Source of the DNA: an uncultured Candidatus Saccharibacteria bacterium
Lineage (GTDB): Bacteria > Patescibacteriota > Minisyncoccia > JAHISW01 > Tagabacteraceae
Direction: 5' to 3'
Assembly: GCA_964601305.1 (NCBI GenBank)
Contig: CAZRMW010000002.1
Location: 3,439-67,438, forward strand
DNA: 64,000 bases
In this document: positions 2,411 through 57,534 of the stretch, piece after piece
How the letters are laid out: the number at the start of each line of letters is the position of its first letter
How positions within the stretch are numbered: the stretch's first letter is position 1
The notes under the pieces: model-generated
Seen by the model: only the letters and a program-made list of their open reading frames with translations
Told to the model about the DNA's origin: nothing
The model's database searches: none
Position numbers and translations under genes: made by a program

Positions 2411-4579
2411 ATGAAAAAGAAAAATAAAATAAGAAATTTATTAGTTTACCTTACAACAGCTTTTGTTGTTTGTTTCTTGATTATTGGTTTTTTGTTTTTA
2501 TTATGGATTAAGTCCTTGCCAATACCAGATTTTGAAACTTTTAACGAAAGAAAAATCATCCAATCCACAAAAATATATGATAGAACAGGTAAAAATCTTT
2601 TATACGATGTTTTTAAGGATGTAAAAAGAACTGTAATACCATACGAAGAAATCCCTCTTCATATTAAAAATGCCACTGTAATAATAGAAGATGAAAATTT
2701 TTATCAACACAATGGTATAAGTATTGAGGGTATTTTAAGAGCATTTACAACCAATTTGAAACACGGAAAAATAAAAGGACAAGGTGGCTCTACAATTACA
2801 CAACAACTTGTTAAAAATAGTTTCTTAACACCAGAAAAAACTTTTACACGAAAAATAAAAGAAGCTATTATTGCACTCAAAATCGAAAGAGTATTTTCAA
2901 AAGAGAAAATTCTTACTCTTTATCTAAACGAAATTCCTTATGGTGGAACTAATTACGGAATAGAGTCTGCCTCTCAATCTTTTTTTAACAAACAAGCTAA
3001 AAATTTAACGTTAGCTGAATCAGCTTATTTAGCAGCTATACCACAAAGACCAACCTATTATTCACCTTATGGTTCTCATATTGATGAACTTGAAGAAAGA
3101 AAAACTTTTATTTTAGAAAAAATGCTTCAACTTGGTTTTATTTCTGAAAATGAATATAATAATGCAATTTCTGAAGAAGTAGTGTTTTCTAGTATACAAG
3201 AAAAAGGAATAGAAGCACCACATTTTGTAATGTATATAAAAAGCTATTTAGAAGAAATGTATGGGGCAGATTTTGTAGAATATGGCGGATTAAAAGTTAC
3301 TACAACATTAGATTTAGAATTACAAAAAGAAGCTGAAAAACTAGCTTTAGAGTATTCAAAAACTAATGAAAAAAATTTTAATGCAAAAAATACTGGTATA
3401 GTTGGTGTAGACCCAAAAACAGGACAAATAATTATAATGGTTGGTTCTAGAAATTATTTCGACGAAGAATATGAAGGAAAATACAATATAGCACTTGCAG
3501 AAAGACAACCTGGCTCCGCTTTTAAGCCTTTTGTATATGCTACAGCGTTTAAAAAAGGGTATACTCCAGAAACTGTTGTTTTTGATTTAAAAACAGAATT
3601 TAATTCTTCTTGTAATCCAGATAGTACCCCTAAATTTGGTACCGAAGAAGATGAATGTTATAGTCCTGGAAATTATGACAATATTTTTAGAGGTCCAGTA
3701 AGCCTAAGAAATGCTTTGGCTCAATCTATAAACGTTCCTGCTGTTAAAACACTTTATCTTGCTGGATTAAACGATTCATTAAACACTGCTAAAGATATGG
3801 GTATTTCTACTCTTACAGACCCATTACGATATGGATTAACCTTAGTTCTTGGAGGTGGGGAAGTAAGCTTGCTTGATATTACAAGTGCTTATTCTGTGTT
3901 TGCTAACGACGGAATAAAAAATAAGACTGTAGGAATTTTAAAAATTACAGATAATGAAGGAAATATAATTAAAAACTTCGAACCTCAACCAACAAGAGTA
4001 CTAGATCCTAATGTTTCTAGTATGATAAACGATGTTTTGTCAGACAATGTGGCGCGCACACCAGCTTTTGGAGCAAGATCCTGGCTTTATTTCTCAGACA
4101 GAGATGTTGCGGCCAAAACTGGTACAACAAACGACTATAGAGATGCTTGGGTGGTAGGATATACCCCAAATTTTTCTCTAGGTGTGTGGGTAGGAAATAA
4201 CGACAACACCTCTATGGAAAAAAGAGTTGCCGGATTTATTACAGCTCCTTTATGGAATGCAGTATTTAATAAAGTTTTTGAATCTTTACCAAAAGAAGAT
4301 TTTAAGAAAAATGAACAAAACAATATTCACAAAAACATAAAACCAGTACTACGTGGATACTATATGGGTAGTAAAACAAATTTAGTAGACACAGATAATG
4401 GACAAATAACAGAAAATATACCTACTCAAATTCATTCTATATTATATTGGGTAGACAAAAATGATCCAAACGGAGAAATACCAACAAACCCAGAAAAAGA
4501 TTCTCAGTTTTATTTATGGGAAAAACCAGTAAGAGATTGGTTGGCAACACAAAACATTATTGAAGAATATCAAAATTAA
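2411..4579 (+). CDS. class A penicillin-binding protein (bifunctional glycosyltransferase/transpeptidase, PBP1A-like)
   Basis: N-terminal TM; GT51 motifs EDENFYQHNGI and GGSTITQQLVKN; transpeptidase SAFKPF (SxxK), SIN (SxN) and KTGTT (KTG). Confidence 0.9.
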   Translation: MKKKNKIRNLLVYLTTAFVVCFLIIGFLFLLWIKSLPIPDFETFNERKIIQSTKIYDRTGKNLLYDVFKDVKRTVIPYEEIPLHIKNATVIIEDENFYQHNGISIEGILRAFTTNLKHGKIKGQGGSTITQQLVKNSFLTPEKTFTRKIKEAIIALKIERVFSKEKILTLYLNEIPYGGTNYGIESASQSFFNKQAKNLTLAESAYLAAIPQRPTYYSPYGSHIDELEERKTFILEKMLQLGFISENEYNNAISEEVVFSSIQEKGIEAPHFVMYIKSYLEEMYGADFVEYGGLKVTTTLDLELQKEAEKLALEYSKTNEKNFNAKNTGIVGVDPKTGQIIIMVGSRNYFDEEYEGKYNIALAERQPGSAFKPFVYATAFKKGYTPETVVFDLKTEFNSSCNPDSTPKFGTEEDECYSPGNYDNIFRGPVSLRNALAQSINVPAVKTLYLAGLNDSLNTAKDMGISTLTDPLRYGLTLVLGGGEVSLLDITSAYSVFANDGIKNKTVGILKITDNEGNIIKNFEPQPTRVLDPNVSSMINDVLSDNVARTPAFGARSWLYFSDRDVAAKTGTTNDYRDAWVVGYTPNFSLGVWVGNNDNTSMEKRVAGFITAPLWNAVFNKVFESLPKEDFKKNEQNNIHKNIKPVLRGYYMGSKTNLVDTDNGQITENIPTQIHSILYWVDKNDPNGEIPTNPEKDSQFYLWEKPVRDWLATQNIIEEYQN

Positions 4580-5676
4580 ATATTCTTCATCGGCGATATT
4601 AAATACTTAAATGAAGAATCTCCTAAACCTGTAACTAAGAGTGGTTTACCTTCGCCACTAAACTTAAAAATTATTTTTTCAGTACCAATAGAAGATAAGC
4701 ATTCCACAAGATAACGATAATTAAATACCGATGTTAAGTCATCACCCTCTATATCTCCTTTTATATTGTTAATATGTTCTCCTAGCTCAGAATTGTTAGA
4801 TAAAAATTCTAAAAAATTCTCCCCTTTATATATCTTTATTCTAATTTCGTTCAATTTACCACAAAACATTGCTGAGCTTTTTAAAACATTCAACAATTCT
4901 TTTTTACTTACTGTAGCAATATTTGTAAAATCTGTAGGTATTATTTGTTTATAATCAATGTATTTACTGTCAACCAATCTTGTTATGAATTGAATATTAT
5001 CCGACTCTAAAAGTATATTGTTATCGTCAATTTTTATTTTTAAATCACCGTCTTTGTTTTCAAAAATTCTCAAAATTTCAACAACACTTCTGTAAGGAAT
5101 CAAAAGATTGGGGAAATCTGAAAAATTATAATGAATTATTTTTTCAGCCAACCGGAAAGTATCAGTTGCAACAAAAGTTAAAGGGTTTTTTTCTGAAGAG
5201 TTTAAATAAACACTATTTAACTCTGGTTTCATTTCTGAAATAGATACTCCATAATATACAGATCTTAAACCAGACATAAAATCACTTACAGATAAGCTAA
5301 AATTCTTTTTTTCTTTTATTTCAGGAAGTATAGGGAAATCTTCAACCGGATACCCTTTGATTGTAGTAGAGCTACTATTTGTTATTACAACTAAATTTTC
5401 GCCTGAAGTAGAAAGTTTAATATTATCATCTTGAAGAGAAGAAACAAGATTTGAAAAAACTTTAGATGGTACGGCAATCTTACCTTCTTCTTTGATTTCT
5501 ACTGGTATAGTTACCCTTAAACCTACTTCAAGATTAGTACTTAAGAAATGAAGTTTATTTTTTCCTGTTTTTATAAGTACAGTATTTAAAATCGGTAGGG
5601 AAGGGTTTTTGTTTGGAATTTTTTCACTAAGAGAAGATGCTTCTTGTAGATATTTTTTTATACAATTAACTTTCAT
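4576..5676 (-). CDS. dnaN: DNA polymerase III beta sliding clamp
   Basis: 366 aa immediately downstream of dnaA on the same strand; three-domain clamp-like composition. Confidence 0.8.
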   Translation of the reverse strand: MKVNCIKKYLQEASSLSEKIPNKNPSLPILNTVLIKTGKNKLHFLSTNLEVGLRVTIPVEIKEEGKIAVPSKVFSNLVSSLQDDNIKLSTSGENLVVITNSSSTTIKGYPVEDFPILPEIKEKKNFSLSVSDFMSGLRSVYYGVSISEMKPELNSVYLNSSEKNPLTFVATDTFRLAEKIIHYNFSDFPNLLIPYRSVVEILRIFENKDGDLKIKIDDNNILLESDNIQFITRLVDSKYIDYKQIIPTDFTNIATVSKKELLNVLKSSAMFCGKLNEIRIKIYKGENFLEFLSNNSELGEHINNIKGDIEGDDLTSVFNYRYLVECLSSIGTEKIIFKFSGEGKPLLVTGLGDSSFKYLISPMKNI

Positions 5677-7556: not shown

Positions 7557-7901
7557 ATGCTACCTCTTAAGAGTAGATTTAAAAAAGAGGATTTTGAAAG
7601 TATAAAAAATTTTAAGAGAAAAAGTTTTTCTTCTAAAAATTTTACTTTAAAATTATACGACTCTGCTTTTTCGCCGAGTCGTTTTGCTATTGTTGTTTCA
7701 AAAAATTTTTCAAAAAGTGCTGTCAATAGAAATAGAATAAAAAGACAAATTAAAGGAATTATAAATAAAAATATAAAAGAAATTAAAAATGGTTTTGCTA
7801 TAATTATTTATATAAAAAAAGAAGTAAAAGAAAAAATTAATTTTAAAGAAACACAAAAAGAAATTATAAATTTATTTAAAAAATCTAATATTTTAAAATA
7901 A
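7557..7901 (+). CDS. rnpA: ribonuclease P protein component
   Basis: 114-aa basic protein following rpmH in the conserved rpmH-rnpA-yidC-jag cluster. Confidence 0.75.
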   Translation: MLPLKSRFKKEDFESIKNFKRKSFSSKNFTLKLYDSAFSPSRFAIVVSKNFSKSAVNRNRIKRQIKGIINKNIKEIKNGFAIIIYIKKEVKEKINFKETQKEIINLFKKSNILK

Positions 7902-8698
7902 TGTTTTCTATAATATACAACACAATATTTTATGAACCTCTATATAATATATTAATTTTTTTAATTAACATATTACCTTTTCATAGTTTAGGTTTAGCTA
8001 TAATTTTACTCACAATAATAGTAAGATTAATTATTTTTCCATTTAGTCATAAATCAGTAATTACTCAAAAGAAAATTAAAGTAATAGAGCCAGAAATAAA
8101 CAAAATAAAAGAGAAATATAAGAATAAAAAAGAAGAACAAACAAGACAAATAATGAGTTTATATAAAGAACATGGAATTAGTCCTTTTTCTGGTTTTTTA
8201 ATGATTTTAATACAATTACCTATTTTTATTGCTTTATTTGTAATTCTTAAAGATATTTCAAATTTAAATGAAGATATTGTTTATTCATTCTTATTAATAC
8301 CAGAAAATATAAATACATTATTTTTAGGTTTTATAGAAATTTCTAAATCTAATCTTTTTATATCTATTTTAGCTGGTGTGTCTCAATTTTTTCAAATAAA
8401 ACTTGCAATGCCTATTACTCCAAAACAATCAAAAAACCCTTCTCTTTCAACAGAATTTCAAAGAAGTATGAGTATACAAATGAAATATATAATGCCATTT
8501 TTTATTGTATTTATTTCTCAAAAATTTCCTTCAGGATTAGCTCTTTATTGGACAACTTCAAATATATTTGCTATATTTCATGAAATTGCAGTTTCAAGAA
8601 AGTCTAATAAAATAATACAAAAAAATGACCCCGTAAAAGAATCTAAAGATTCCCACGAGGTAAAAAACCAACATGGAAGAGAAAATAAATCAAATTAA
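7901..8698 (+). CDS. yidC: membrane protein insertase YidC (short form)
   Basis: Multi-TM 265-aa protein with the conserved C-terminal YidC/Oxa1 region (ALYWTTSNIFAIFHE); position after rnpA. Confidence 0.8.
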   Translation: MFSIIYNTIFYEPLYNILIFLINILPFHSLGLAIILLTIIVRLIIFPFSHKSVITQKKIKVIEPEINKIKEKYKNKKEEQTRQIMSLYKEHGISPFSGFLMILIQLPIFIALFVILKDISNLNEDIVYSFLLIPENINTLFLGFIEISKSNLFISILAGVSQFFQIKLAMPITPKQSKNPSLSTEFQRSMSIQMKYIMPFFIVFISQKFPSGLALYWTTSNIFAIFHEIAVSRKSNKIIQKNDPVKESKDSHEVKNQHGRENKSN

Positions 8699-9131
8699 AA
8701 AATTAATAGAAGATTTATTAGAGAAATTAACTATTAATGGGAGAGTAGAAACAGAAGAAACAGTGGATGGTCCACAATTTATTATAAGAACTCCAGAAGG
8801 GGGATTGCTTATTGGTGAAAATGGAAAAAATTTAATTTCTTTTAATCATTTAGTAAAAAAAATTATATCTAAAGAAAAAAATAAAGAAGATTCTTTTTCT
8901 TTTTCTTTAGATATAAATGGTTATCAAAATAAAAAAATAGAAGACTTAAAAGATATAGCCAGAGTAAATGCACAAAGAGTAAGATATTTTAAAAAAGAAA
9001 TAATTTTAAAGGCAATGTCTTCTTATGAAAGAAGAATTGTTCATATGGCACTTTCAGATTCTCCCGATATTAGCACAGATAGCATTGGACAAGAGCCAGA
9101 GAGAAAAATTGTTATAAAACCATATCTCTAA
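8673..9131 (+). CDS. jag: Jag/KhpB-like KH plus R3H RNA-binding protein
   Basis: R3H motif region (SSYERRIVHMALSD) and its position after yidC. Confidence 0.7.
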   Translation: MEEKINQIKKLIEDLLEKLTINGRVETEETVDGPQFIIRTPEGGLLIGENGKNLISFNHLVKKIISKEKNKEDSFSFSLDINGYQNKKIEDLKDIARVNAQRVRYFKKEIILKAMSSYERRIVHMALSDSPDISTDSIGQEPERKIVIKPYL

Positions 9132-10312
9132 ATATCTAAACTCCAGAGAGTAAAATCTTTTTTGTTTTGAAAGAAAAGATTGTTTTCATTCTTATCTAAA
9201 AATATATTAATAATATCTAAATTAGAATTATTATAAAGATTTTCTGTTGAACCATCTTTTAAATCTATTTTCCAAATAGAATCATTAAAAGAAATTACTC
9301 CTTTATACCAATCGTCTGGATAATAAGCGGAAGGAATAAAAGAAGGAACTGCACAAAATATTACATCTGTGTTTAATTTACTAAAGATACATTTTTCAGG
9401 TAATGTTTTATAAGACAAAATAGAGATTTTTTTATCACTAGTATTATATATTTTTGTAGAGAGCTCTTTGTTTATTGACTCACTATATATAATTTTATTG
9501 TCATTTGGGGAATGAAGAGTAGTTAACCCTTTTATACCTCCTAATAATTTTGTAAAAGAGTTATTTAAAGGATTTAATTTATATAGAAACCCATCTAAAA
9601 AAGCAGAAGGTTTTGTTTGAAGGGTAATGGTGTTTTTTTGTGGCCAATTAATTAAAAAATTACTATATTCTATTTCTAATATTTCTTTTTTGTTTTTATT
9701 TTCAAAAGTAGAAGTAAAACCAGAAGTTATAATATCTTTCAATAAATAAAATATTTTATTTTCGCTTGATGATACTGTAATTTGAGATGTGTTTAATGGT
9801 AAAAAAACACCAGATGTAGAAGTTGCCAAAGAATTTATAAGAAATGTTTTTACTTGCTCATAATTTTCTTCTTCTTTTATGTCTGTGTATTGAAGTATTA
9901 ATTTTGTAGTATCTTTGGACCAAACGGCATTAAAAATTTTAGGAATTGTATTTATACTTATTTGTTTTTTTTCTTGACCATTATTGTTTATTTCATAAAT
10001 ATGACCAGTAGATTTTTCTATATATTTTATTTTATTCCCATCAAAAACAGCTCCAACAATAGGTAAATTAATAATTTGTTTTAATTTTCCAAATTGTTGT
10101 CCTTCAGAAGTATCTTGAGTTTCTCTTTCAAATACATCGTCTATGGAAATTTGATCAAAAGAAAGTTCTTCTTCATCTGTAGGAAACAAAGTAGAGAAAA
10201 AACCTTTTTCTTCTTTTTTTTCGTCCGATGGCCACAGCAAATAAACCGAAAGAATAGTTATAATAACTAATCCTGTGACTATTCCTATTATTGTTAAATT
10301 TTTTCTAGACAT
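9128..10312 (-). CDS. T4SS-like operon gene 11: N-terminally membrane-anchored extracytoplasmic protein
   Basis: Single N-terminal TM (LTIIGIVTGLVIITILSVYLLW) followed by a large beta-rich domain; last gene of the tightly packed minus-strand operon. Confidence 0.5.
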   Translation of the reverse strand: MSRKNLTIIGIVTGLVIITILSVYLLWPSDEKKEEKGFFSTLFPTDEEELSFDQISIDDVFERETQDTSEGQQFGKLKQIINLPIVGAVFDGNKIKYIEKSTGHIYEINNNGQEKKQISINTIPKIFNAVWSKDTTKLILQYTDIKEEENYEQVKTFLINSLATSTSGVFLPLNTSQITVSSSENKIFYLLKDIITSGFTSTFENKNKKEILEIEYSNFLINWPQKNTITLQTKPSAFLDGFLYKLNPLNNSFTKLLGGIKGLTTLHSPNDNKIIYSESINKELSTKIYNTSDKKISILSYKTLPEKCIFSKLNTDVIFCAVPSFIPSAYYPDDWYKGVISFNDSIWKIDLKDGSTENLYNNSNLDIINIFLDKNENNLFFQNKKDFTLWSLDI

Positions 10313-22528: not shown

Positions 22529-22554
22529 GGTGAGAGGGAGTCTATTTGTGAGCT

Positions 22555-22581
22555 TGACAAAGTACATAGATGTAGTATAAT
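22555..22581 (+). promoter_or_regulatory. sigma70-type promoter (TTGACA, 15-nt spacer, TATAAT)
   Basis: TTGACA at 22555-22560 and TATAAT at 22576-22581, upstream of ORF 22671. Confidence 0.5.
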
Positions 22582-22670
22582 GTAGATAGAAAATAAAAGC
22601 CCCCGCCGAGCGGGGTAAATTGAAAACATAAATATAGATTTTTTGACAGCCTGCGGGCGGGGAGGTTCTG

Positions 22671-23081
22671 ATGAATTTTTATGACAGACCGATGAGTTCA
22701 TTGTCTTGGTTTATGGTCGGCTTCTGCCTCATTTTTGCACTTTTTGTACAGGGGTGTGGAGTACGTCTTCCTGTAGTAAGAATTCAGGAGGTACCAACAA
22801 TTTCGGGATTTTTTTACAACTACAAGGTTATGAATGGTCTTGGAAAACAAGTCCAGTTCACCTACAAAGGTCAGTTGTACACCTTGGATCCAGGAGCTCA
22901 TGCGAATATTCGTATCCCAATGCATGGGCGCAGACAGGAGATTGTTCTACCGATGATGGTCTATGATGGGCCAGACATGGTAGGAACGAAAGGTGTTAAA
23001 ATTTGGATTCCCAAGTTGTTTTCCAATGCATCAGCAAAGGAGGGATTTACCCATATTACGAGTTTTATAAAATTCCGGTGA
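22671..23081 (+). CDS. small putative lipoprotein
   Basis: 136 aa; hydrophobic N-terminus ending FALFVQGCG; preceded by the promoter and the GGGCGGGGAGG SD-like motif; followed by an intrinsic terminator at about 23105-23145; GC content is elevated. Confidence 0.5.
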   Translation: MNFYDRPMSSLSWFMVGFCLIFALFVQGCGVRLPVVRIQEVPTISGFFYNYKVMNGLGKQVQFTYKGQLYTLDPGAHANIRIPMHGRRQEIVLPMMVYDGPDMVGTKGVKIWIPKLFSNASAKEGFTHITSFIKFR

Positions 23082-26538: not shown

Positions 26539-27522
26539 ATGGGTGTGTTTAGTCTTGCTAGTGCTGGTGTTGCAGAGGCAGGATTTTTTTCTTTCTTGGA
26601 CAAAGTTTTTGGTTTAGAAGAGGAAAAAATTGAAATCATTCAAAATTCTCAAACAGCATCTTTGCTTAAGCCAGTGGTAAATTCAGATTTAACTGCAGGA
26701 AAAGGTGGCGGTGGGCCGACCATTGTAGACAAGAGTGCGCTTTTGGCGGATACAGGGCCTTTGGGGAGTATTGCAGATGTTGAAGAAAAAATTGCTAATT
26801 CAGACAAGATTAGCATTTATGTAGTAAGAGAAGGAGATAGTTTGTCTGGCATTGCTAAAATGTTTGGCGTGAGTGTAAATACAATTATTTGGGCAAACGA
26901 TATTTCTAGAGGAGATTTAATTAAAACTGGAGAAACTCTTATAATTTTACCGGTTACGGGTATCAAATATACTATCAAGAAAGGAGATACTCTTTCTTCT
27001 GTTGCTAAAAAATACAAAGCTGATTCCGATGAAATTTTAGACTACAATGATTTAATAGATGGCAGTGAATTAGCTATGGGTGATGAAATTATTATTCCAG
27101 ATGGTGAAGCCCCATACAAACCTGTGATGAGGAGTTACGGTAAGAGTAGATTGAGAGGCTCTGGTGGACCAAACTATGTTGGGTACTATATAAGTCCAGT
27201 AAGTAACTCTAGAAGAACTCAAGGTCTTCATGGTTATAATGCTGTAGATTTGGCAAACTACTGTGGAGCGCCAATTTTGGCTGCAGCTTCTGGTGATGTA
27301 ATTATTTCTAGATCTTACGGTTGGAATGGTGGTTATGGAAACTACATAGTTATAAGCCACCCAAATGGCACACAGACACTCTACGCACACAATAGCAGAA
27401 ATATTGTAAGTCGTGGTTGGCATGTGGTGAAGGGGCAAGTAATAGGGTATATGGGAAGTACAGGTAAATCTACGGGATGCCACGTTCACTTTGAGATTCG
27501 TGGAGCCAGAAATCCATTTTAA
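26539..27522 (+). CDS. LysM-domain M23-family peptidoglycan endopeptidase
   Basis: Two LysM repeats (YVVREGDSLSGIAKMFGVSVNTI and YTIKKGDTLSSVAKKY) and the M23 motifs HGYNAVDL and GSTGKSTGCHVHFEI. Confidence 0.85.
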   Translation: MGVFSLASAGVAEAGFFSFLDKVFGLEEEKIEIIQNSQTASLLKPVVNSDLTAGKGGGGPTIVDKSALLADTGPLGSIADVEEKIANSDKISIYVVREGDSLSGIAKMFGVSVNTIIWANDISRGDLIKTGETLIILPVTGIKYTIKKGDTLSSVAKKYKADSDEILDYNDLIDGSELAMGDEIIIPDGEAPYKPVMRSYGKSRLRGSGGPNYVGYYISPVSNSRRTQGLHGYNAVDLANYCGAPILAAASGDVIISRSYGWNGGYGNYIVISHPNGTQTLYAHNSRNIVSRGWHVVKGQVIGYMGSTGKSTGCHVHFEIRGARNPF

Positions 27523-27591
27523 AAACGATAACAAGCAACTTATAATGAGTAACCAGTAATTACGTATTTTATACGTAGTTTTTTGTTGTGC

Positions 27592-27619
27592 TTGACAAAA
27601 TATATAAATAAGGTATAAT
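27592..27619 (+). promoter_or_regulatory. sigma70-type promoter (TTGACA, 16-nt spacer, TATAAT)
   Basis: Lies just after the M23 gene terminator (27560-27585) and upstream of the first Zn-ribbon gene. Confidence 0.55.
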
Positions 27620-27671
27620 ACGAACAGAAAATAAAGATAAACTTTGATATAAAGGATAAGGGAGGAAAATT

Positions 27672-27926
27672 ATGTATTCGGACAATCCAGCTTTCAAAAA
27701 AGGTCCTTACGGACAGTGCCCTGATTGTCGCTGGGTAGACTTAGAACTATCTGGCTTTGAAACAAAATCCTTGAGATGCCCAGTATGCAAAGAAAGGTTT
27801 GAGGCATCCGGGGAGGCCGAGTACCTCAAAAAATTGGCAAAAGAAAAGAGGGAAAAGGCGACTAAAAATTTTTTCAAAAACGCCTGGGGTATGCCCGGTC
27901 AGAAAAGGGTACAGCCTTCCCCTTAG
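27672..27926 (+). CDS. small zinc-ribbon protein, paralog 1
   Basis: 84 aa with CPDC...CPVC; SD AAGGGAGG; 33 nt identical to paralog 2. Confidence 0.55.
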   Translation: MYSDNPAFKKGPYGQCPDCRWVDLELSGFETKSLRCPVCKERFEASGEAEYLKKLAKEKREKATKNFFKNAWGMPGQKRVQPSP

Positions 27927-27952
27927 TATTCCCGTCCAGGGGGTAACATAAC

Positions 27953-28004
27953 ATCGAAAAGCCTTATGTACTATGCCAAGCGCGGCAAACATAAGGCTTT
28001 TTTA
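27953..28004. repeat. ~50-nt terminator-containing repeat, copy 1 (ATCGAAAAGCCTTATGTACTATGCCAAGCGCGGCAA...AGGCTTTTT)
   Basis: Second copy at 29124-29175, about 90% identical; hairpin plus T-run. Confidence 0.65.
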
Positions 28005-28073
28005 TTTGACTTTTTAGGGTCATTTTGCTTGAATGGTACTAAATTTGAAAATTTAAGAAGGAGATTGAAAAAT

Positions 28074-28328
28074 ATGGACGCAAATAATCCAGCTCTTAAG
28101 TCAGGTCCTTATGGGCAATGTCCTAAATGTCCCTGGACAGATTTAGAATTATCTGGTTATGAAAAAAAATCTTTAAGATGCCCAGTATGCAAAGAAAGGT
28201 TTGAGGCACATTGGGAAAAAATAGAAAAAGAAGAAGAGGGTGCAGAAGAAGCTGCTTGGGAGAAATGGATGTGGGCGAACAAGCCCTGGCTTCATAAATT
28301 AAAAAATCCCAAAAAGAAAAAACCTTAA
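28074..28328 (+). CDS. small zinc-ribbon protein, paralog 2
   Basis: 84 aa with GPYGQCPKCPWTDLELSGYEKKSLRCPVCKERFEA, parallel to paralog 1; SD GAAGGAG. The ORF-track start at 27966 runs through the terminator repeat and is spurious. Confidence 0.55.
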   Translation: MDANNPALKSGPYGQCPKCPWTDLELSGYEKKSLRCPVCKERFEAHWEKIEKEEEGAEEAAWEKWMWANKPWLHKLKNPKKKKP

Positions 28329-28348
28329 TAAAAAAGGGAGAAAATAAT

Positions 28349-28573
28349 ATGAATGAAAAAACAGAAATTGATGTTAGTGATTTGAAAGAATTTGTTCAGC
28401 TTACTTATGGTGGAATTAATAGTTTCAAAGACAGTTTAGCTTATTGGAAGCATCATCTGGAATACATAGACGATTCTGATAGTGTGCATAACAAAGAAGA
28501 GGTGGTAACAAGGATTAAAGAGATTGAGTTTTCAATAGAAAAAGCAGAAAATCTAATTAAAAAATATTCTTAA
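28349..28573 (+). CDS. hypothetical small protein
   Basis: 74 aa; SD AAGGGAG; own composite terminator (28596-28642) containing CCCCGCCGAGCGGGG. Confidence 0.45.
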   Translation: MNEKTEIDVSDLKEFVQLTYGGINSFKDSLAYWKHHLEYIDDSDSVHNKEEVVTRIKEIEFSIEKAENLIKKYS

Positions 28574-28715
28574 TTCGTTTTCGGGCGATATTGTAGAGCC
28601 TCATAAACCCCGCCGAGCGGGGTAAATATGAGGCTTTTTTATTGACTTAGAAACACAGAATTGTTAGTTTGTAATAAGAAAAACCTTGAAATATAACCCA
28701 AAAAGGAGACAACCA

Positions 28716-29102
28716 ATGAAAGGAATGGAAGATTTGATTAAAGTCCAAGAACAAATATTAACAGCTCAAAAAATATTGATAAAGCAAAATATTGAGGCAC
28801 AGCAGGTTCGTTTGTGGTCTGAGTATGGTGAAGAATTAGAAAGAATTAAGCAGGATAAGGTGAAAGACATAGAAGAAGGTGGGCGTGTTGAACAAGTCTT
28901 AGTGTTTTTACTTAATCTTTTTTTGGAGGTTCACGATGCTCAAGAAAGTTTATCCATAAGCTCCAAAGAAGAAAGAAAGTTTTTTGAAAGAAACTTTGCT
29001 CTTTGGATGAATCTACCAGCGATGAAAAAAATGTGGAAAAGAGTAAGACTCTGGAAGCATAAAGAGCATGTAAAATTTGTAGACAGTTTAATTAAAAAAT
29101 AA
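28716..29102 (+). CDS. hypothetical helical protein
   Basis: 129 aa from the ATG that follows SD AAAAGGAGAC; followed by repeat copy 2. Confidence 0.45.
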   Translation: MKGMEDLIKVQEQILTAQKILIKQNIEAQQVRLWSEYGEELERIKQDKVKDIEEGGRVEQVLVFLLNLFLEVHDAQESLSISSKEERKFFERNFALWMNLPAMKKMWKRVRLWKHKEHVKFVDSLIKK

Positions 29103-29123
29103 ATCAATTTACCTTAGGGTGAA

Positions 29124-29175
29124 ATCGAAAAGCCTTATGTACTATGCCAAGCGCGGCAAGTATGAGGCTTTTTAT
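29124..29175. repeat. ~50-nt terminator-containing repeat, copy 2
   Basis: See copy 1; its 3' half resembles the terminator at 28596-28642. Confidence 0.65.
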
Positions 29176-30701
29176 TTTTCTTTTGGCCTGTATTGCAATG
29201 CCTCGAAAATGTGTTTTTCTAAAATATCTTTGTTTTCATCAAGGTCCGCAATTGTGCGGGCTAATTTTATTACTCTATGGTACGCACGCGCCGAGAGATC
29301 GAGCTGTTTGGCAGCTTGGTCTAACGTTTCACGTACAGTATTTGAAATGTTTACAAATTTTTTAAGCTCGCGCACCCCCATTTCGCTATTTGTTATTGTT
29401 GATGTATCAGAAAATCTTTTCTTCTGAATTTCTCTGGCTTTTATAATTCTTTTTCTAACTTCACTTGAAGACTCGGAAACAATTTTGTCGTTTGAAAGTT
29501 TTTCAATTTCTATTTGAGGAACTTCTAACCACAGATCTACTCTATCTATAATTGGTCCAGAAATTTTTCTTTGATATCTTAAAAGTTCACCCTGTGAACA
29601 AATACAATCTTTTACAGTTGAAGTTAGGTTGCCGCAGGGGCATGGGTTCATAGCACAAAGTAAAATAAATCTTGCTGGAAACTTTAAACTACCACGAGCC
29701 CTGGAAATTGTTACTACACCGTCTTCTAATGGTTGACGCATAGCTTCGATGACCCTTTTTTCAAAGAGAGGGAATTCATCAAGAAAAAGAACTCCACGAT
29801 GACTTAGACTTATTTCCCCTGGTTTTGGCCATGTGCCACCACCAACAAGGGCAACATAAGAAGATGTGTGGTGTGGTGTCCGTAGGGGTCGATCTGCGCA
29901 ATATGGCCCGTCTAATGCGCCAGCTATACTGTGAATTGTTGTAATTTCTAAGGCCTCATCGAAAGATGGGGGAGGTAAAATAGCAGAAAACGCTTTTGCA
30001 AGCATTGTTTTTCCTGTGCCTGGAGGACCAGACATTGCTATATTGTGTCCGCCGGCTGCTGCTATCTCTAAACCTCTTTTGGCCGTTTCTTGACCTTTTA
30101 TGTCTGAAAAATCTAAGAGCCCACCCAGAAAATCTTCTGGTTTCATTTTTGTAGGAGATTGTTTTTCTAAAACCTCATCTTCATGGAGGTGTAAAATTAA
30201 ATCTTTTAGGCTGTTTATTCCATAAACATCAATATCTTTTATGAGGGCAGCTTCTTTGGCGTTTTCTTTTGGTAGATAAATTTCTTTAAAGCCTTTTTCT
30301 TTGGCAACTCTTGCAAGACTTAAAACTCCTTTTATTGGTCTAAGTGTACCATCAAGCCCGAGTTCTCCGAGAAAAATTTTTCCTTCAGTAGAAAAATGTA
30401 TTTGATCAGATGCTAAAAGAAAAGAAAGCGCTATAGCTAAATCAAAAACCGGTCCTTCTTTTTTAAGATCGGCCGGGGCTAGAGATATAGTTACTCGATA
30501 GTTTCCTTTTTGTGGTGAATCAAATCCATTGTTTTTTATAGCTGCAGAAACCCTGTCTTTTGCTTCGTCTACTGCCTTATCGGCGAGGCCTACAATAGAA
30601 AAACGATGAAGACCTTTTGTAAGGTCTATTTCTACATCAATGATTTTTCCATCTAACCCAAATGTTTGAGCAGAGTATATCTTTTTTGCCATTAGAGACA
30701 A
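29172..30701 (-). CDS. comM: YifB/ComM-family Mg-chelatase-like AAA+ ATPase
   Basis: N-terminal Lon-like domain, AAA+ core (Walker A GPPGTGKTMLAK, Walker B VLFLDEF), and the C-terminal ChlI-like region. Confidence 0.85.
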   Translation of the reverse strand: MSLMAKKIYSAQTFGLDGKIIDVEIDLTKGLHRFSIVGLADKAVDEAKDRVSAAIKNNGFDSPQKGNYRVTISLAPADLKKEGPVFDLAIALSFLLASDQIHFSTEGKIFLGELGLDGTLRPIKGVLSLARVAKEKGFKEIYLPKENAKEAALIKDIDVYGINSLKDLILHLHEDEVLEKQSPTKMKPEDFLGGLLDFSDIKGQETAKRGLEIAAAGGHNIAMSGPPGTGKTMLAKAFSAILPPPSFDEALEITTIHSIAGALDGPYCADRPLRTPHHTSSYVALVGGGTWPKPGEISLSHRGVLFLDEFPLFEKRVIEAMRQPLEDGVVTISRARGSLKFPARFILLCAMNPCPCGNLTSTVKDCICSQGELLRYQRKISGPIIDRVDLWLEVPQIEIEKLSNDKIVSESSSEVRKRIIKAREIQKKRFSDTSTITNSEMGVRELKKFVNISNTVRETLDQAAKQLDLSARAYHRVIKLARTIADLDENKDILEKHIFEALQYRPKEK

Positions 30702-35036: not shown

Positions 35037-35366
35037 TTATTTAGAAACCTTTTTACTTGCCCCGCTCGGCGGGGTTTTTTTATCTGCAAGAGAACGGTTT
35101 CTTTTTAGTCCAAGTTTTTTGCTTATAGCTAAATAACTCTCTTCATTCTTTTTCTTTAAATAATCCATCAGTTTTTTCCTTTTTGAAACCATTTTAAGAA
35201 GGCCTCTCCTTGAATGATTGTCTTTTGGTTGGCTTTTTAAGTGACTAGTAAGCTCTTTTATTTGCTCTGTAAGCACAGCAACTTGCACCTCTGAAGAACC
35301 AGTATCTTTTTCATTAATACCGTATTTCTTGATGATTTTTTGTTTTTCTTGTGTTTTCATCGCCAT
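35037..35366 (-). CDS. rpsO: 30S ribosomal protein S15 with a C-terminal extension
   Basis: [52 protein letters not shown] matches S15. A 20-aa tail (…[14 protein letters not shown]) is encoded through the palindrome CCCCGCCGAGCGGGG (35060-35074). Confidence 0.85.
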
Positions 35367-36029: not shown

Positions 36030-36590
36030 ATGAAAAGAGAAACAACAATTATAGTGGGGAAAATAGTCTTAGCAACTGTTGCATCAGTTGGTCTTGTGAG
36101 TATGGCAGTATTGGCTCCAAATGCAGTTCAATGCTTGGAAATGTTTTGGGGCAAGGATAAAAGAAAATATAGTCCCAAATACCATGTTAATAAAACGATA
36201 TCTAAATTAAAACAACAAGGTTTAATAAAATTTGAAAATAAAAATGGTAAAAGTTTTGTACGACTCACCCAAAAAGGACAAGAGAGGTTGCTTAAATATC
36301 AACTCCAAGAACTAAAAATAAAAAAGACAAAAAAATGGGACAAAAAGTGGAGAGTAATTATTTTCGATATAAAAGAGAACAAAAGGTATATAAGAGATGG
36401 GTTAAGAATAGAATTAATTAGATTGGGTTTTGTGAGGCTTCAAAACAGTGTTTGGGTACACCCATATAAATGCGATGATGTAATAGCGATGTTTAAGGCG
36501 CATTTCAAAATTGGCAAAGATGTTTTATATATGACGGTTGAGAATATAGAAAACGATAAGTGGTTGAAGGAGGAGTTTGGATTAGTCTAA
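36030..36590 (+). CDS. winged-helix protein with PaaX-C/Cas2-like C-terminal domain
   Basis: N-terminal TM, a wHTH-like segment, then WRVIIFDIKENKRYIRDGLRIELIRLGFVRLQNSVWV (Cas2/PaaX_C-like beta-alpha pattern). The domain assignment is tentative. Confidence 0.35.
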   Translation: MKRETTIIVGKIVLATVASVGLVSMAVLAPNAVQCLEMFWGKDKRKYSPKYHVNKTISKLKQQGLIKFENKNGKSFVRLTQKGQERLLKYQLQELKIKKTKKWDKKWRVIIFDIKENKRYIRDGLRIELIRLGFVRLQNSVWVHPYKCDDVIAMFKAHFKIGKDVLYMTVENIENDKWLKEEFGLV

Positions 36591-37300: not shown

Positions 37301-38182
37301 ATGTCGCAAAACATCAAAAAACTAAAAAACCAATATTTGGAATATATAGAAATAGAAAGAGGGCGTGCGCTTAAAACAGTTGAGAATTATGATAGATATT
37401 TGAAAAAGTTTTTTGATTTTTCTAAAGTTAAAAATCCGCAAGATATAAAAGATGAGACAGTTCGTAAATATCGTTTGTATTTAAATAGAGAGGGACTGAA
37501 AAAGAAAACACAAAACTATTATTTAATTGCGCTTAGAAATTTTTTAAAGTATTTAGCAAAGTTAGATATAAAAAGTTTGCCTCCGGAAAGAATAGAGCTT
37601 GCGAAAGTTGGGCAGAGGCAATTGGATTTGGTAAGTGGTGACGACCTTGAGAGGCTTTTGAGTTCACCGAAAGGCGCCTGCGAGGCTGATTTAAGAGACA
37701 AAGCTATTTTAGAGCTTCTTTTTTCTACAGGGCTTCGAGTGTCAGAACTCTGTGGTCTTAATATAGATAGCATAGATTTGAAGAAAGATGAGTTTTCTGT
37801 GAGAGGGAAGGGGGATAAAGTAAGATTGGTTTTTTTGTCAGGAAATGCTAAAAGTGCTGTGAAGAATTATTTAGATAAAAGAGCAAATATAGATGAAGAA
37901 GCAATGTTTGTAAATATAAGATCGGGAGGTCGGTTAACAGCAAGATCGGTGGAAAGAATCGTACAAAAATATGCCACTTTGGCAGGGATTTCTAAAAAAA
38001 TGACGCCCCATGTAATAAGGCATTGTTTTGCTACGGATCTTTTGGAATCGGGAGCAGACTTACGCTCGGTACAGGCACTTTTGGGGCATAGCAATATTAC
38101 TACTACTCAAATTTATACACACGTTACCGATAGACAGCTGAAAGAAATTCATAAAACCTTTCATGGAAAAAAGCGCCGATAA
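37301..38182 (+). CDS. xerC: tyrosine recombinase XerC/XerD
   Basis: The R..H..R..Y catalytic set: LFSTGLRVSEL, HVIRHCFATDLL, LLGHSNITTTQIYTHV. Confidence 0.85.
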   Translation: MSQNIKKLKNQYLEYIEIERGRALKTVENYDRYLKKFFDFSKVKNPQDIKDETVRKYRLYLNREGLKKKTQNYYLIALRNFLKYLAKLDIKSLPPERIELAKVGQRQLDLVSGDDLERLLSSPKGACEADLRDKAILELLFSTGLRVSELCGLNIDSIDLKKDEFSVRGKGDKVRLVFLSGNAKSAVKNYLDKRANIDEEAMFVNIRSGGRLTARSVERIVQKYATLAGISKKMTPHVIRHCFATDLLESGADLRSVQALLGHSNITTTQIYTHVTDRQLKEIHKTFHGKKRR

Positions 38183-38579: not shown

Positions 38580-38656
38580 TGGTGGACCCTACCGGATTTG
38601 AACCGGTGACTTCTTCCATGCCATGGAAGCACTCTGGCCAACTGAGCTAAGGGCCC
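38580..38656 (-). tRNA. tRNA-Ala (anticodon GGC), CCA encoded
   Basis: Manual fold: acceptor GGGCCCT/AGGGTCC with G3:U70, D arm GCTC…GAGT, anticodon loop ATGGCAT, T loop TTCAAAT. Confidence 0.8.
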
Positions 38657-38733
38657 CTAAATCTAAATTAAACTTAATTTAGATCGGGCGAACAATTTTG
38701 TTAACAAAATAGTTTTAGCCTTGTTAATTTTTA

Positions 38734-38805
38734 TGCCCTCACCAGGAATCGAACCTAGATCTGATCCTTAGGAGGGATCTGTTCTATCCGTTGAACTACG
38801 AGGGC
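38734..38805 (-). tRNA. tRNA-Arg (anticodon CCU)
   Basis: Manual fold: acceptor GCCCTCG/TGAGGGC, anticodon stem GATCC/GGATC with loop CTCCTAA, T loop TTCGATT; CCA not encoded. Confidence 0.75.
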
Positions 38806-38837
38806 TCGCTAAGTGTGATTTATCCCGCTCGGCGGGG

Positions 38838-39074
38838 TTATTTTACACCTAACAATTCTGAGATTTTAGCTTTGTCGAAACCAATTATTGTTTCGTCGCC
38901 AATCGTTATTACTGGTACAGCCATTTGGCCAGTTTTTTCTATAAGCTCGTTTCTTTTGGCTTCGTCTATAGATACATCAAATTCTTCGTATTCTATGCCT
39001 TTTTCTTTAAACCAATCTTTTGCCATTACACAGTAGGCGCAAGAAGGAGTAGAGTATATTTGTACTTTTTGCAT
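38838..39074 (-). CDS. glutaredoxin-like protein (NrdH/Grx family)
   Basis: 78 aa with the CAYC active site in YSTPSCAYCVMAKDWF and the thioredoxin-fold pattern. Confidence 0.8.
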   Translation of the reverse strand: MQKVQIYSTPSCAYCVMAKDWFKEKGIEYEEFDVSIDEAKRNELIEKTGQMAVPVITIGDETIIGFDKAKISELLGVK

Positions 39075-39148
39075 ATTTTTAAATTTTTAAAAATTAATAA
39101 TACACTAGTATTCTACACTAATTTATCTTTATAGCAATTTATTTTTTG

Positions 39149-39233
39149 TGCGCGGAAGAGGATTTGAACCTCCACGAGAGTAACTCTCACTACCCCCTCA
39201 AGGTAGCGCGTCTACCAGTTCCGCCACCCGCGC
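39149..39233 (-). tRNA. tRNA-Leu (anticodon GAG), class II with long variable arm
   Basis: Acceptor GCGCGGG/TCCGCGC, D region GCG-GAACTGGTAGA-CGC, anticodon loop TTGAGGG, variable arm TGAGAGTTACTCTCG, T loop TTCAAAT. Confidence 0.8.
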
Positions 39234-48385: not shown

Positions 48386-48608
48386 TATTTTTGTTAGTGG
48401 TATAATCAAAGTAGTTATTTGAAGATTTGTTTTTAGGTTAAATTGTTTTTCTAGGGAGTCTTATATTGGGCAGTGTCGACGGATTTGTTCTGGATATTGC
48501 TTCTGCGGGCACCCACCTGAAAAGTAGCTAAAAACACTCTTTTAAATAACTTGCCCCGCCAGGCGGGGTGAACCTCGCTCCTTGTTTTCAAGGGGCGTTG
48601 GTTTTTTT

Positions 48609-53607: not shown

Positions 53608-53954
53608 GGGAGTGATCGGCTTTGATAAGAAGCTTCTTTTAAAACAGTGCATATCGAGTATTCTAAAATCTCGTTAAACTTTTAGAGCTTCAAATAAATG
53701 CAAATTTATTTAAAACTCCAGCTTTAGCTTACGCTTAAAGCTCGTTCCCTTACTCATTCTCAATAAGTAAGGAAGAACGTCATCATTGAGATAGATAATT
53801 TTTATTGGGCTTTGAAAAATTATTGAAACAAAACAAAGCCAAAGCTAAGAACTTTTTGCTCGGTTTTTATTTCTTAGTCTAAACAAACCAAGCTAAATAT
53901 GTAGATACTTTTTAAAAATCTTTTTACACGGCGGTTCGATTCCGCCCACTTCCA
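53608..53954 (+). ncRNA. ssrA: tmRNA (transfer-messenger RNA)
   Basis: 5' GGGAGTG pairs with 3' CACTTCC including G3:U70; T arm GGCGG-TTCGATT-CCGCC. PK1 region CAGTGCATATCGAG resembles E. coli GGUGCAUGCCGAG. Tag ORF gca aat tta ttt aaa act cca gct tta gct tac gct taa encodes ANLFKTPALAYA (53700-53738); the GCTTTAGC core is conserved. CCA is not encoded. Confidence 0.85.
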
Positions 53955-54377
53955 CAAAATATTAATTCCCGAAGCGTTAGCTTTGGGGATTTTGATTTTG
54001 TAGGTTGGTGGCGGAATTGAACAGGCGGAGGCGGGCACCGTCGCCGACTAGCGAAGCTAGTGGCGCGCGGTCGCCGAGCCCGGGGAGGAAGTTCTTAGTG
54101 AAGACAAGTGCAAAGCACGAAGTCTGAGCTTAGAAACTTGACCCTCGATTCCGCCCACTTCCACAAAATATTAATTCCCGAAGCGTTAGCTTTGGGGATT
54201 TTGATTTTGTAGGTTGGTGGCGGAATTGAACAGGCGGAGGCGGGCACCGTCGCCGACTAGCGAAGCTAGTGGCGCGCGGTCGCCGAGCCCGGGGAGGAAG
54301 TTCTTAGTGAAGACAAGTGCAAAGCACGAAGTCTGAGCTTAGAAACTTGACCCTCGATTCCGCCCACTTCCACAACT
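53937..54377 (+). repeat. 209-bp tandem repeat (2.1 copies) beginning inside the last 18 nt of ssrA
   Basis: CGATTCCGCCCACTTCCACAA recurs at 53937, 54146 and 54355 with identical 188-bp GC-rich spacers. Confidence 0.9.
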
Positions 54378-57168: not shown

Positions 57169-57534
57169 ATGGTTAGAATAAAAAGAGGTACAATTTCATT
57201 AAAGAGGAGAAGAAACGTTTTAAAACAAACGAAGGGTTATAAGTGGGGAAGGAAGTCTAAAGAAAGGGCAGCTAAAGAAGCAATTTTTCATGCAGCTACT
57301 CATGCCTTTCAAGACAAAAGAAAAAAGAAAAGAGTTTTTAGAAAATTGTGGCAGATAAAAATAAATGCAGCTGTTCGTCCGCTAGAGGTTTCTTACAGTA
57401 GGTTTATAGACATGCTTAAAAAAGCTGAAGTTGGTTTGGATAGAAAAATATTGTCGCAATTAGCAGAGCACAAACCAGAAGTTTTTAAAAAAGTTGTTGA
57501 AGAGGTAACCCCGCCGAGCGGGGCAAGAAAATAA
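57169..57534 (+). CDS. rplT: 50S ribosomal protein L20 (C-terminal tail encoded by the palindrome)
   Basis: MVRIKRGTISLKRRRNVLKQTKGY…RKLWQIKINAAVR matches L20; the last codons (…TPPSGARK) read through CCCCGCCGAGCGGGG at 57509-57523. Confidence 0.85.
   Translation: MVRIKRGTISLKRRRNVLKQTKGYKWGRKSKERAAKEAIFHAATHAFQDKRKKKRVFRKLWQIKINAAVRPLEVSYSRFIDMLKKAEVGLDRKILSQLAEHKPEVFKKVVEEVTPPSGARK

Follow-up and report, generated by a model that had tools for sequence, protein, structure and literature searches.

What are the four small genes that lie between a LysM-M23 peptidase gene and comM in an uncultured bacterium of the candidate phyla radiation (CPR), and how did they come to be there? We analyzed this locus within a 64-kb stretch of contig CAZRMW010000002.1 (the window, in which all coordinates are given; GC content, 35%). 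The two flanking genes meet tail to tail, and the insert between them measures ~1.65 kb and carries four open reading frames (ORFs), all on the + strand, which are designated here Zn1, Zn2, p74, and p128. The answer that we favor, with moderate confidence, is that the insert is a lineage-restricted accessory array that would comprise three transcription units, an old pair of paralogs with a zinc-binding head, terminators that are copies of one cassette, and a putative docking module.

We compared the products of the first two genes, Zn1 (27672-27926; 84 amino acids [aa]; isoelectric point [pI], 9.3) and Zn2 (28074-28328; 84 aa; pI 8.7). An earlier note on this DNA had described them as paralogs with a CPxC…CPVC motif and a common 33-nt stretch, and both observations were confirmed. 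In the N-terminal 45 residues, 35 are identical (E = 3e-26). The DNA is 80% identical over 142 nt, with homology that begins 7 nt before the ATG and stops at codon 45. The charged tails of 39 residues that follow are unrelated; that of Zn1 is basic and predicted to be helical, and that of Zn2 is first acidic and then rich in Trp and Lys. In the head, C16-P-x-C19 and C36-P-V-C39 are invariant in both paralogs (CPDC...CPVC in Zn1 and CPKC...CPVC in Zn2), so that four candidate zinc ligands form two CxxC knuckles separated by a short spacer, the arrangement expected of zinc ribbons and treble clefs. Judging from these two CPxC pairs, the head most likely binds one zinc ion. Nei-Gojobori analysis of codons 1-34 gave a saturated synonymous divergence (dS) of 1.65, a nonsynonymous divergence (dN) of 0.18, and a dN/dS ratio of 0.11. 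These results indicate that the zinc head is under purifying selection, which is the best evidence that Zn1 and Zn2 are real genes. No further paralogs were found within the window.

The 33-nt tract is identical at 27774-27806 and 28176-28208, corresponds to codons 35-45 (RCPVCKERFEA), and abuts the end of the homology. Differing codons are used for 10 of the 22 conserved residues in codons 1-34 but for none of the 11 in codons 35-45. The probability of such an identity by chance was 0.0013 in a codon test, 0.013 in Fisher's test, and 0.005 when the occurrence of an identical run of ≥33 nt was tested by permutation. The tract had been taken to imply either recent duplication or gene conversion. 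Recent duplication is contradicted by the saturated dS outside the tract, which indicates that the duplication of Zn1 and Zn2 is old, whereas a conversion-like tract is indeed present. The tract represents either a short gene conversion that ended at the homology boundary or a constraint at the nucleotide level, and conversion is the most likely of the two.

Next, the coding capacity of the array was evaluated. Each ORF is preceded by a strong Shine-Dalgarno (SD) site 6-10 nt before its ATG: GGGAGG at 27660-27665 for Zn1, AAGGAG at 28058-28063 for Zn2, AGGGAG at 28335-28340 for p74 (28349-28573; 74 aa; acidic, pI 4.9), and AAGGAG at 28703-28708 for p128 (28716-29102; 128 aa; basic, pI 9.1). 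The four ORFs and their individual SD sites were thus as first described, except that the fourth product has 128 and not 129 residues. A codon-usage log-odds score was trained on 28 long ORFs of the window (native mean, 0.38; standard deviation, 0.14; 5th percentile, 0.15), and the annotated frame scored first of six for all four ORFs. The scores of p74 (0.41), p128 (0.28), and Zn2 (0.25) were inside the native range, and the annotated frames of p74 and p128 scored far above the other five. The score of Zn1 was -0.01, below the native 5th percentile, reflecting atypical codon usage. In the JGI and ENA gene calls, Zn2 is a protein of 120 aa (27966-28328) that starts at an ATG within the hairpin downstream of Zn1, whereas the NCBI call is 84 aa. 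The 84-aa start has an SD site and matches the N terminus of Zn1, and we therefore regard the 120-aa form as a gene-caller artifact. Inspection of the four sequences revealed no visible signal peptide or membrane segment, and the products are presumably small, soluble, cytoplasmic proteins. A model of p128 predicted from its single sequence by AlphaFold2 (AF2) comprised five helices, with a predicted local distance difference test score (pLDDT) of 87 and a predicted template modeling score of 0.75.

These data also bear on an explanation in which part of the array is non-functional, p74, p128, and perhaps the tail of Zn1 being young de novo or decaying ORFs at an intergenic site that tolerates them and the zinc head alone being under selection. 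Consistent with this, p74 and p128 have no homologs, the codon score of Zn1 is low, and the array is invariant among strain contigs from five samples (contigs L001-L005; samples SAMN11854485, SAMN11854489, SAMN10231901, SAMN10231904, and SAMN10231923; 98.7-99.7% identical), so that the strain variants of p74 and p128 are identical. A 58-nt deletion in p128 in the L004 contig points in the same direction, but this contig is a short scaffold of the same assembly series and the deletion may be an artifact; the apparently shorter p128 variants of L003 and L001 proved to be runs of N. By contrast, the native-range coding scores of p74 and p128, their strong SD sites at the correct spacing, and the confident folding of p128 all argue for functional genes. 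We consider it unlikely that part of the array is non-functional, and the four genes look real and self-contained.

We then examined the 3' ends of the genes, where three related hairpins, T1 (27953..28007, + strand), T2 (28590..28644, + strand), and T3 (29124..29178, no strand assigned), were located. T1, the terminator of Zn1, is a long-stem hairpin followed by a T-run. The hairpin of T2 has the core CCCCGCCGAGCGGGG at 28608-28622 and is followed by TTGACT, and the T-run of T3 overlaps the stop codon of comM (29172-29174). The three are copies of a cassette of ~55 nt, T3 being 91% and T2 73% identical to T1; the recurrence of a ~50-nt terminator element at 27953-28004 and 29124-29175, noticed from the sequence beforehand, is therefore borne out. 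The predicted folding energies of T1, T2, and T3 were -22.3, -28.5, and -21.7 kcal/mol (z scores of -5.6, -7.6, and -4.4), and none of 200 shuffled sequences was as stable. The T-runs are 5-6 nt long, and the elements begin 17-27 nt past the stop codons. With their stable stem-loops and T-runs, T1-T3 fit the sequence definition of intrinsic terminators, which likewise consist of a GC-containing stem-loop and a T-run at the 3' end of a gene. A simple terminator scanner missed all three because their loops and internal loops are beyond its limits. They differ from ordinary intrinsic terminators in their unusually long, two-tiered stems (an outer stem of 14 bp, an internal loop, and an inner GC hairpin), in being related copies of one cassette, and in the TTGACT hexamer that accompanies two of them. 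A degenerate pattern of the cassette matched the window only at T1-T3 and gave no match in 100 shuffles, and an nhmmer profile found no further full copy in the 64 kb. The full cassette is thus not dispersed at many loci within the window, as an element of the repetitive extragenic palindromic (REP) or miniature inverted-repeat transposable type would be.

Like bidirectional terminators, T3 lies between convergent genes, here p128 and comM, and this position is held in two relatives (L007 and L015) by single hairpins. The overlap of its T-run with the comM stop codon suggests that T3 is probably a terminator shared by p128 and comM. Its folding energy is -16.8 kcal/mol on the - strand compared with -21.7 kcal/mol on the + strand, because the three positions at which it departs from T1 form G-U pairs on the + strand but are mismatched on the - strand. 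Over the 5' 37 nt, T3 resembles T1, and two of the three departures are to the T2 state. At two outer-stem pairs, T1, T3, and T2 have UA, UG, and CG and GC, GU, and AU, respectively; the changes between T1 and T2 are thus compensatory, with T3 as the wobble intermediate. T3 is possibly a recombinant of T1 and T2 or a product of stepwise compensatory drift, and with only three sequences the two fit equally well. The 3' half of T3 had been matched to 28596-28642 and the terminators described as modular and recombining. The relatedness of the three cassettes and the T2 states in T3 stand, and recombination is one way to explain them, but G-U wobble drift explains them equally.

Which of the genes are transcribed together was assessed from promoters and intergenic distances. 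Zn1 is preceded by a perfect consensus promoter, P1 (TTGACA-16-TATAAT, 12 of 12 positions; 27592..27619, + strand), 52 nt upstream of its start codon, which is one of two perfect sites in the 64 kb. T1 and T2 run straight into TTGACT, at 28006-28011 and 28643-28648, respectively. No good -10 hexamer was found after either TTGACT, the best candidates, TTGAAT and TAGTTT, being poor. The start codon of p74 is located 20 nt past the Zn2 stop codon, with no terminator between the two genes and no promoter for p74. We infer from this arrangement three units, namely Zn1, Zn2-p74, and p128. The earlier view that most of the genes have a consensus-like promoter and a hairpin terminator of their own holds, for promoters, for Zn1 and not for Zn2, p74, or p128, and, for terminators, for the three units and not for Zn2.

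A series of small orphan ORFs in the same orientation, each followed by an imperfect palindrome of ~50 nt, also brings to mind integron cassette arrays and attC clusters. T1-T3 would then be recombination sites, and the array would be the remnant of a mobile element, either an integron-like attC cluster that lacks an integrase or a prophage or integrative element in decay. The ends of attC sites are GCCTAAC...GTTAGGC, and those of T1-T3, GCCTYAT...ATRAGGC, are loosely similar. In addition, T1 and T3 form a direct repeat on either side of a 1.1-kb segment, and the junction is variable in relatives. However, when T1-T3 were compared with the inverse-core RYYYAAC and core GTTRRRY of attC, the AAC/GTT core triplets were absent (GCCTTAT/ATAAGGC, GCCTCAT/ATGAGGC, and GCCTTAT/ATGAGGC). 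Furthermore, the stems are almost perfectly paired, obvious extrahelical bases are missing, T-runs follow the stems, the elements (44-52 nt) are shorter than typical attC sites, and Zn1 has its own perfect promoter, unlike a promoterless cassette. No integron integrase lies by the array; the nearest recombinase, an Xer-like tyrosine recombinase (37301-38182), is 8 kb away, scores highest as XerD/XerC, and reaches only 144.8 bits against the cut-off of 265 for the integron integrase family TIGR02249. The element and the proteins were absent from the viral collections searched, and the base composition of the array is like that of its flanks. The core triplets, the integrase, and the promoterless arrangement all being absent, we reject the integron-cassette interpretation, and a mobile-element remnant of any of these kinds appears very improbable.

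The core of T2 is not confined to the array. The 15-nt hairpin CCCCGCCGAGCGGGG occurs exactly at 22601-22615, 35060-35074 (- strand), and 57509-57523 as well as in T2, and near-copies with one or two changes are located at 38823-38837 (- strand) and 48554-48568. By chance, 0.05 copies would be expected, against the four exact copies and two near-copies observed. All but one of the six point in the same direction as the local genes. One copy is in a 5' leader (22601), another precedes a tRNA gene by 13 nt (38823), and others are at gene 3' ends; the hairpin is mostly followed by YAAR and not by a T-run. It was absent from the syntenic loci of relatives. The cores of T1 and T3 align without gaps to that of T2 and look like degenerate versions of it, and on this basis the cassette would be an outer palindrome around the genome's own dispersed hairpin. 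The hairpin could be a REP-like element, a terminator without a U-tract, or a processing site. It resembles REP-like hairpins and the palindromic elements of Rickettsia in being a short GC-rich palindrome at six sites in 64 kb, two of which are read in frame, and differs from them in its length of only 15 nt, in the restriction of the full T cassette to the array within the window, and in having no associated transposase identified.

The two in-frame copies are located within rpsO (35037-35366, - strand) and rplT (57169-57534, + strand), just past the conserved core of each ORF. They are read through in S15 and L20, giving C-terminal extensions that contain TPPSGA, and L20 ends in ...VVEEVTPPSGARK; the situation is reminiscent of in-frame insertion by palindromic elements. 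The copy in a 5' leader belongs to a lone gene for a predicted lipoprotein of 136 aa (22671-23081), which is driven by the other perfect TTGACA-16-TATAAT site of the window (22554-22581). The lipoprotein has the lipobox LFVQGC and no Pfam match, and the GC content of its gene is higher (0.45).

Homologs of the four proteins were searched for in family, protein, metagenome, viral, and structure collections. None of the four scored above the threshold in Pfam, NCBIfam, PADLOC, or PHROGs. Among the zinc-finger families of Pfam and NCBIfam, the best score was 15.6 bits against a cut-off of 27.8. In PADLOC-DB v2, the best matches were LmuB (E = 0.01; 12.2 bits over 34 residues) and PDC-M14A (E = 0.018), with none for p74 and p128, and the best PHROGs match (E = 0.0048) was to families of unknown function. 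A word-indexed search of 5.8 billion protein clusters with all four sequences returned only the proteins themselves and near-identical strain forms. A HMMER profile of the Zn1/Zn2 alignment, run against 1.84 billion representatives, retrieved the two paralogs and two spurious matches (P0006 and P0007), which on inspection were Cys-rich or repetitive proteins and were rejected as relatives. In JGI metagenome contigs, searches with the neighboring gene p285 and the Zn profile gave no relatives, the organism itself apparently not being in the collection. In viral contigs (IMG/VR), the Zn profile, p128, the T element, and the 33-mer all found nothing, and GenBank phages had no match to Zn1 or p128 at E ≤ 1 in tblastn searches. 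PDB sequence searches gave nothing significant, and Foldseek searches of BFVD and the PDB with the p128 model gave no match below E = 0.39. All four proteins are orphans known from one species only.

These searches are relevant to the suggestion in the earlier note that such an array is typical of defence, anti-defence, toxin-immunity, or phage-derived islands, for which it had proposed searches for defence and DUF families by profile and structure. In a conflict module of this kind, Zn2 could for instance be a toxin neutralized by the acidic p74, and Zn1 and p128 could be effector or immunity variants. Zn2 and p74 are indeed tightly spaced and co-oriented, like type II toxin-antitoxin pairs, and of opposite charge (pI 8.7 and 4.9). 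The combination of a conserved head and unrelated tails would be reminiscent of polymorphic toxins, the junction holds other cargo in each relative, and orphan status is typical of fast-evolving conflict genes. On the other hand, no PADLOC (best E = 0.01, 12 bits), PHROGs, Pfam, or NCBIfam match was significant, no relatives were detected in IMG/VR or GenBank phages, and neither Zn2 nor p74 showed homology to a toxin or antitoxin family in Pfam, PADLOC, NCBIfam, or the PDB. Signal peptides, transmembrane segments, and known toxin folds are also lacking, no structure matched p128, three of the four ORFs have native codon usage, and no defence or mobility genes lie nearby. What remains in favor of a conflict module is architecture and charge complementarity, which are weak indications for genes so small. 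The island interpretation is therefore not supported by these results, and we regard a conflict module as quite unlikely.

Furthermore, we compared the junction between the flanking genes in relatives. The left flank is the LysM+Peptidase_M23 gene (26539-27522, + strand) and the right flank the ComM/Mg-chelatase gene (29172-30701, - strand). M23 is convergent with comM in 8 of 11 CPR relatives, and the wider order PNPase, p285, DksA, ComM, and then M23 and UvrD is kept in several of them. The gap between the two genes is 34-36 nt in L007, which has a single hairpin, and in L009, in which no hairpin is evident, and 143-174 nt in L010 and L015, the latter with a terminator-like hairpin. In other relatives the junction carries cargo. 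In L012 (gap, 0.6 kb), a hypothetical protein of 135 aa is encoded at 7571-7978, and in L016 (1.0 kb), an alpha/beta hydrolase is encoded at 7718-8461. L013 (2.0 kb; cargo at 3067-3471 and 3935-4762) has a homolog of the 135-aa protein of L012, with 38% identity, and a hypothetical protein of 275 aa. L011 (2.5 kb; cargo at 7908-8930 and 9035-9868) has a DUF4349 protein and an unrelated protein of 277 aa. The ~275-aa proteins of L013 and L011 have no Pfam match and are not homologous to each other, and a common cargo of this size was rejected. Nothing resembling the four array proteins was found in the junction cargo of the relatives. These results indicate that the array is a lineage-specific insert at a variable junction, which looks like a general insertion hotspot, and they do not show the housekeeping homologs conserved at this position across the clade that would have contradicted an accessory island.

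The left edge of the insert is the terminator hairpin of the M23 gene (ACGTA...TACGT and a T-run; 27558..27586, + strand; -7.5 kcal/mol; z score, -3.5). Next to it is the sole patch in which the strains diverge, at 27492-27554, where ~19 of 63 positions differ from L003 and L004. The patch covers the last 30 nt of the M23 gene, with mostly synonymous changes and one of Arg to Lys, and the next 30 nt; from the M23 terminator through the whole array, the strains are identical again. Its appearance suggests recombination at the left border of the insert. The GC content of the array is the same as that of the flanks, and the AT skew is positive over 27400-29000, like that of other + strand genes of the window. 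The neighboring genes are housekeeping genes (KsgA, UvrD, PNPase, an NYN-domain protein, and S15), and annotation of the neighbors within the window revealed no mobility or defence gene adjoining the array. An Rfam search of 27400-29300 at a permissive threshold gave nothing beyond two chance-level hits. The homologs of ComM in Candidatus Tagabacteria, Terrybacteria, Niyogibacteria, and other Patescibacteria share no more than 66% identity with it, which indicates that the organism is a poorly sampled CPR bacterium of the Parcubacteria group.

Two further loci of the window were recorded. A PaaX_M protein (Cas2-like central domain; 36030-36590) and the Xer-type recombinase at 37301-38182 lie beside three tRNA genes (38583-39233). 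At 53936-54375, a 209-nt unit is repeated 2.1 times with 100% identity, beginning within the 3' end of the transfer-messenger RNA gene (53608-53957); this repeat could be an att duplication of an element integrated at that gene or an assembly artifact.

In the accessory-insert explanation that we favor, Zn1 would be transcribed alone, Zn2 together with p74, and p128 alone. Zn1 and Zn2 would derive from the old duplication, with selection keeping the 45-residue head while the tails are unrelated, and the short tract at the end of the head would have been homogenized, most likely by gene conversion. Each unit would end in an intrinsic terminator formed by a copy of the one cassette, that is, an outer palindrome around the GC hairpin, a T-run, and, in two copies, TTGACT as a -35-like hexamer. 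The fact that the terminators are copies of one cassette suggests that the array probably grew by local duplication of units composed of a gene and its terminator. As for function, the zinc head may be the module through which both paralogs dock to one and the same cellular partner, a nucleic acid or a protein, and the differing tails, with the co-transcribed acidic p74, may lead to differing outputs. The products would then act as small regulators or adaptors, comparable to the one-domain zinc-finger small proteins of other prokaryotes. Our confidence in this docking mechanism, which is drawn by analogy, is low.

In the archaeal set of such proteins, a Gly trails the CPxC motif, whereas the CPxC motifs of Zn1 and Zn2 have no trailing Gly. 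Zn1 and Zn2 also have no sequence relationship to the one-domain proteins, all matches to Pfam and NCBIfam zinc-finger families being below threshold; in addition, the host here is a CPR bacterium, there are two paralogs with swapped tails, and zinc binding is predicted. Other features are shared. The Haloferax volcanii set, Halobacterium Brz, and cyanobacterial NblD (PMC6562870, PMC2253796, and PMC7865187) are, like Zn1 and Zn2, proteins of <100 aa with a single four-cysteine module of two CPxC-type pairs and a short tail. They too are encoded by stand-alone genes, and many are lineage-restricted and act through partner binding. As a class, such one-domain proteins are versatile and bind DNA, RNA, or proteins (PMC6562870), which backs the analogy only.

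Several points weigh against the accessory-insert explanation. The promoters for Zn2-p74 and p128 are weak, which makes the three-unit model uncertain, and the codon usage of Zn1 is atypical. An AF2 model of Zn1 from a two-sequence alignment had a pLDDT of 51 and was unusable. Neither homologs nor differing strain variants provide comparative support for p74 and p128, and with an array invariant among strains, these two could be young or non-functional ORFs. Expression, products, and zinc binding are predicted from sequence, and the docking function is an analogy. Finally, the closest sampled relatives are distant, and the apparent species specificity may therefore partly reflect poor sampling.

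A further interpretation, to which we give little credence, is that the zinc head with its interchangeable tails and partners represents an undescribed effector-immunity or host-interaction module of an episymbiotic CPR bacterium, located at the M23/comM junction, which would be prone to recombination and a cargo hotspot across Parcubacteria, and made modular by duplicated terminator-promoter cassettes. Rather than a new type of system, the locus represents a well-documented but ordinary piece of the lineage-specific dark matter of CPR bacteria, to which it contributes a new small zinc-finger family. The genomes of these bacteria are tiny and yet retain many small genes that are unexplained. 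The present case is cleanly delimited, with a conserved syntenic junction that holds different cargo in each lineage, and its predicted zinc-binding family is under selection and has no relatives among ~15 billion predicted proteins. If a function were assigned, the array would provide both a new small zinc-finger family and an example of how accessory genes build up in reduced genomes.

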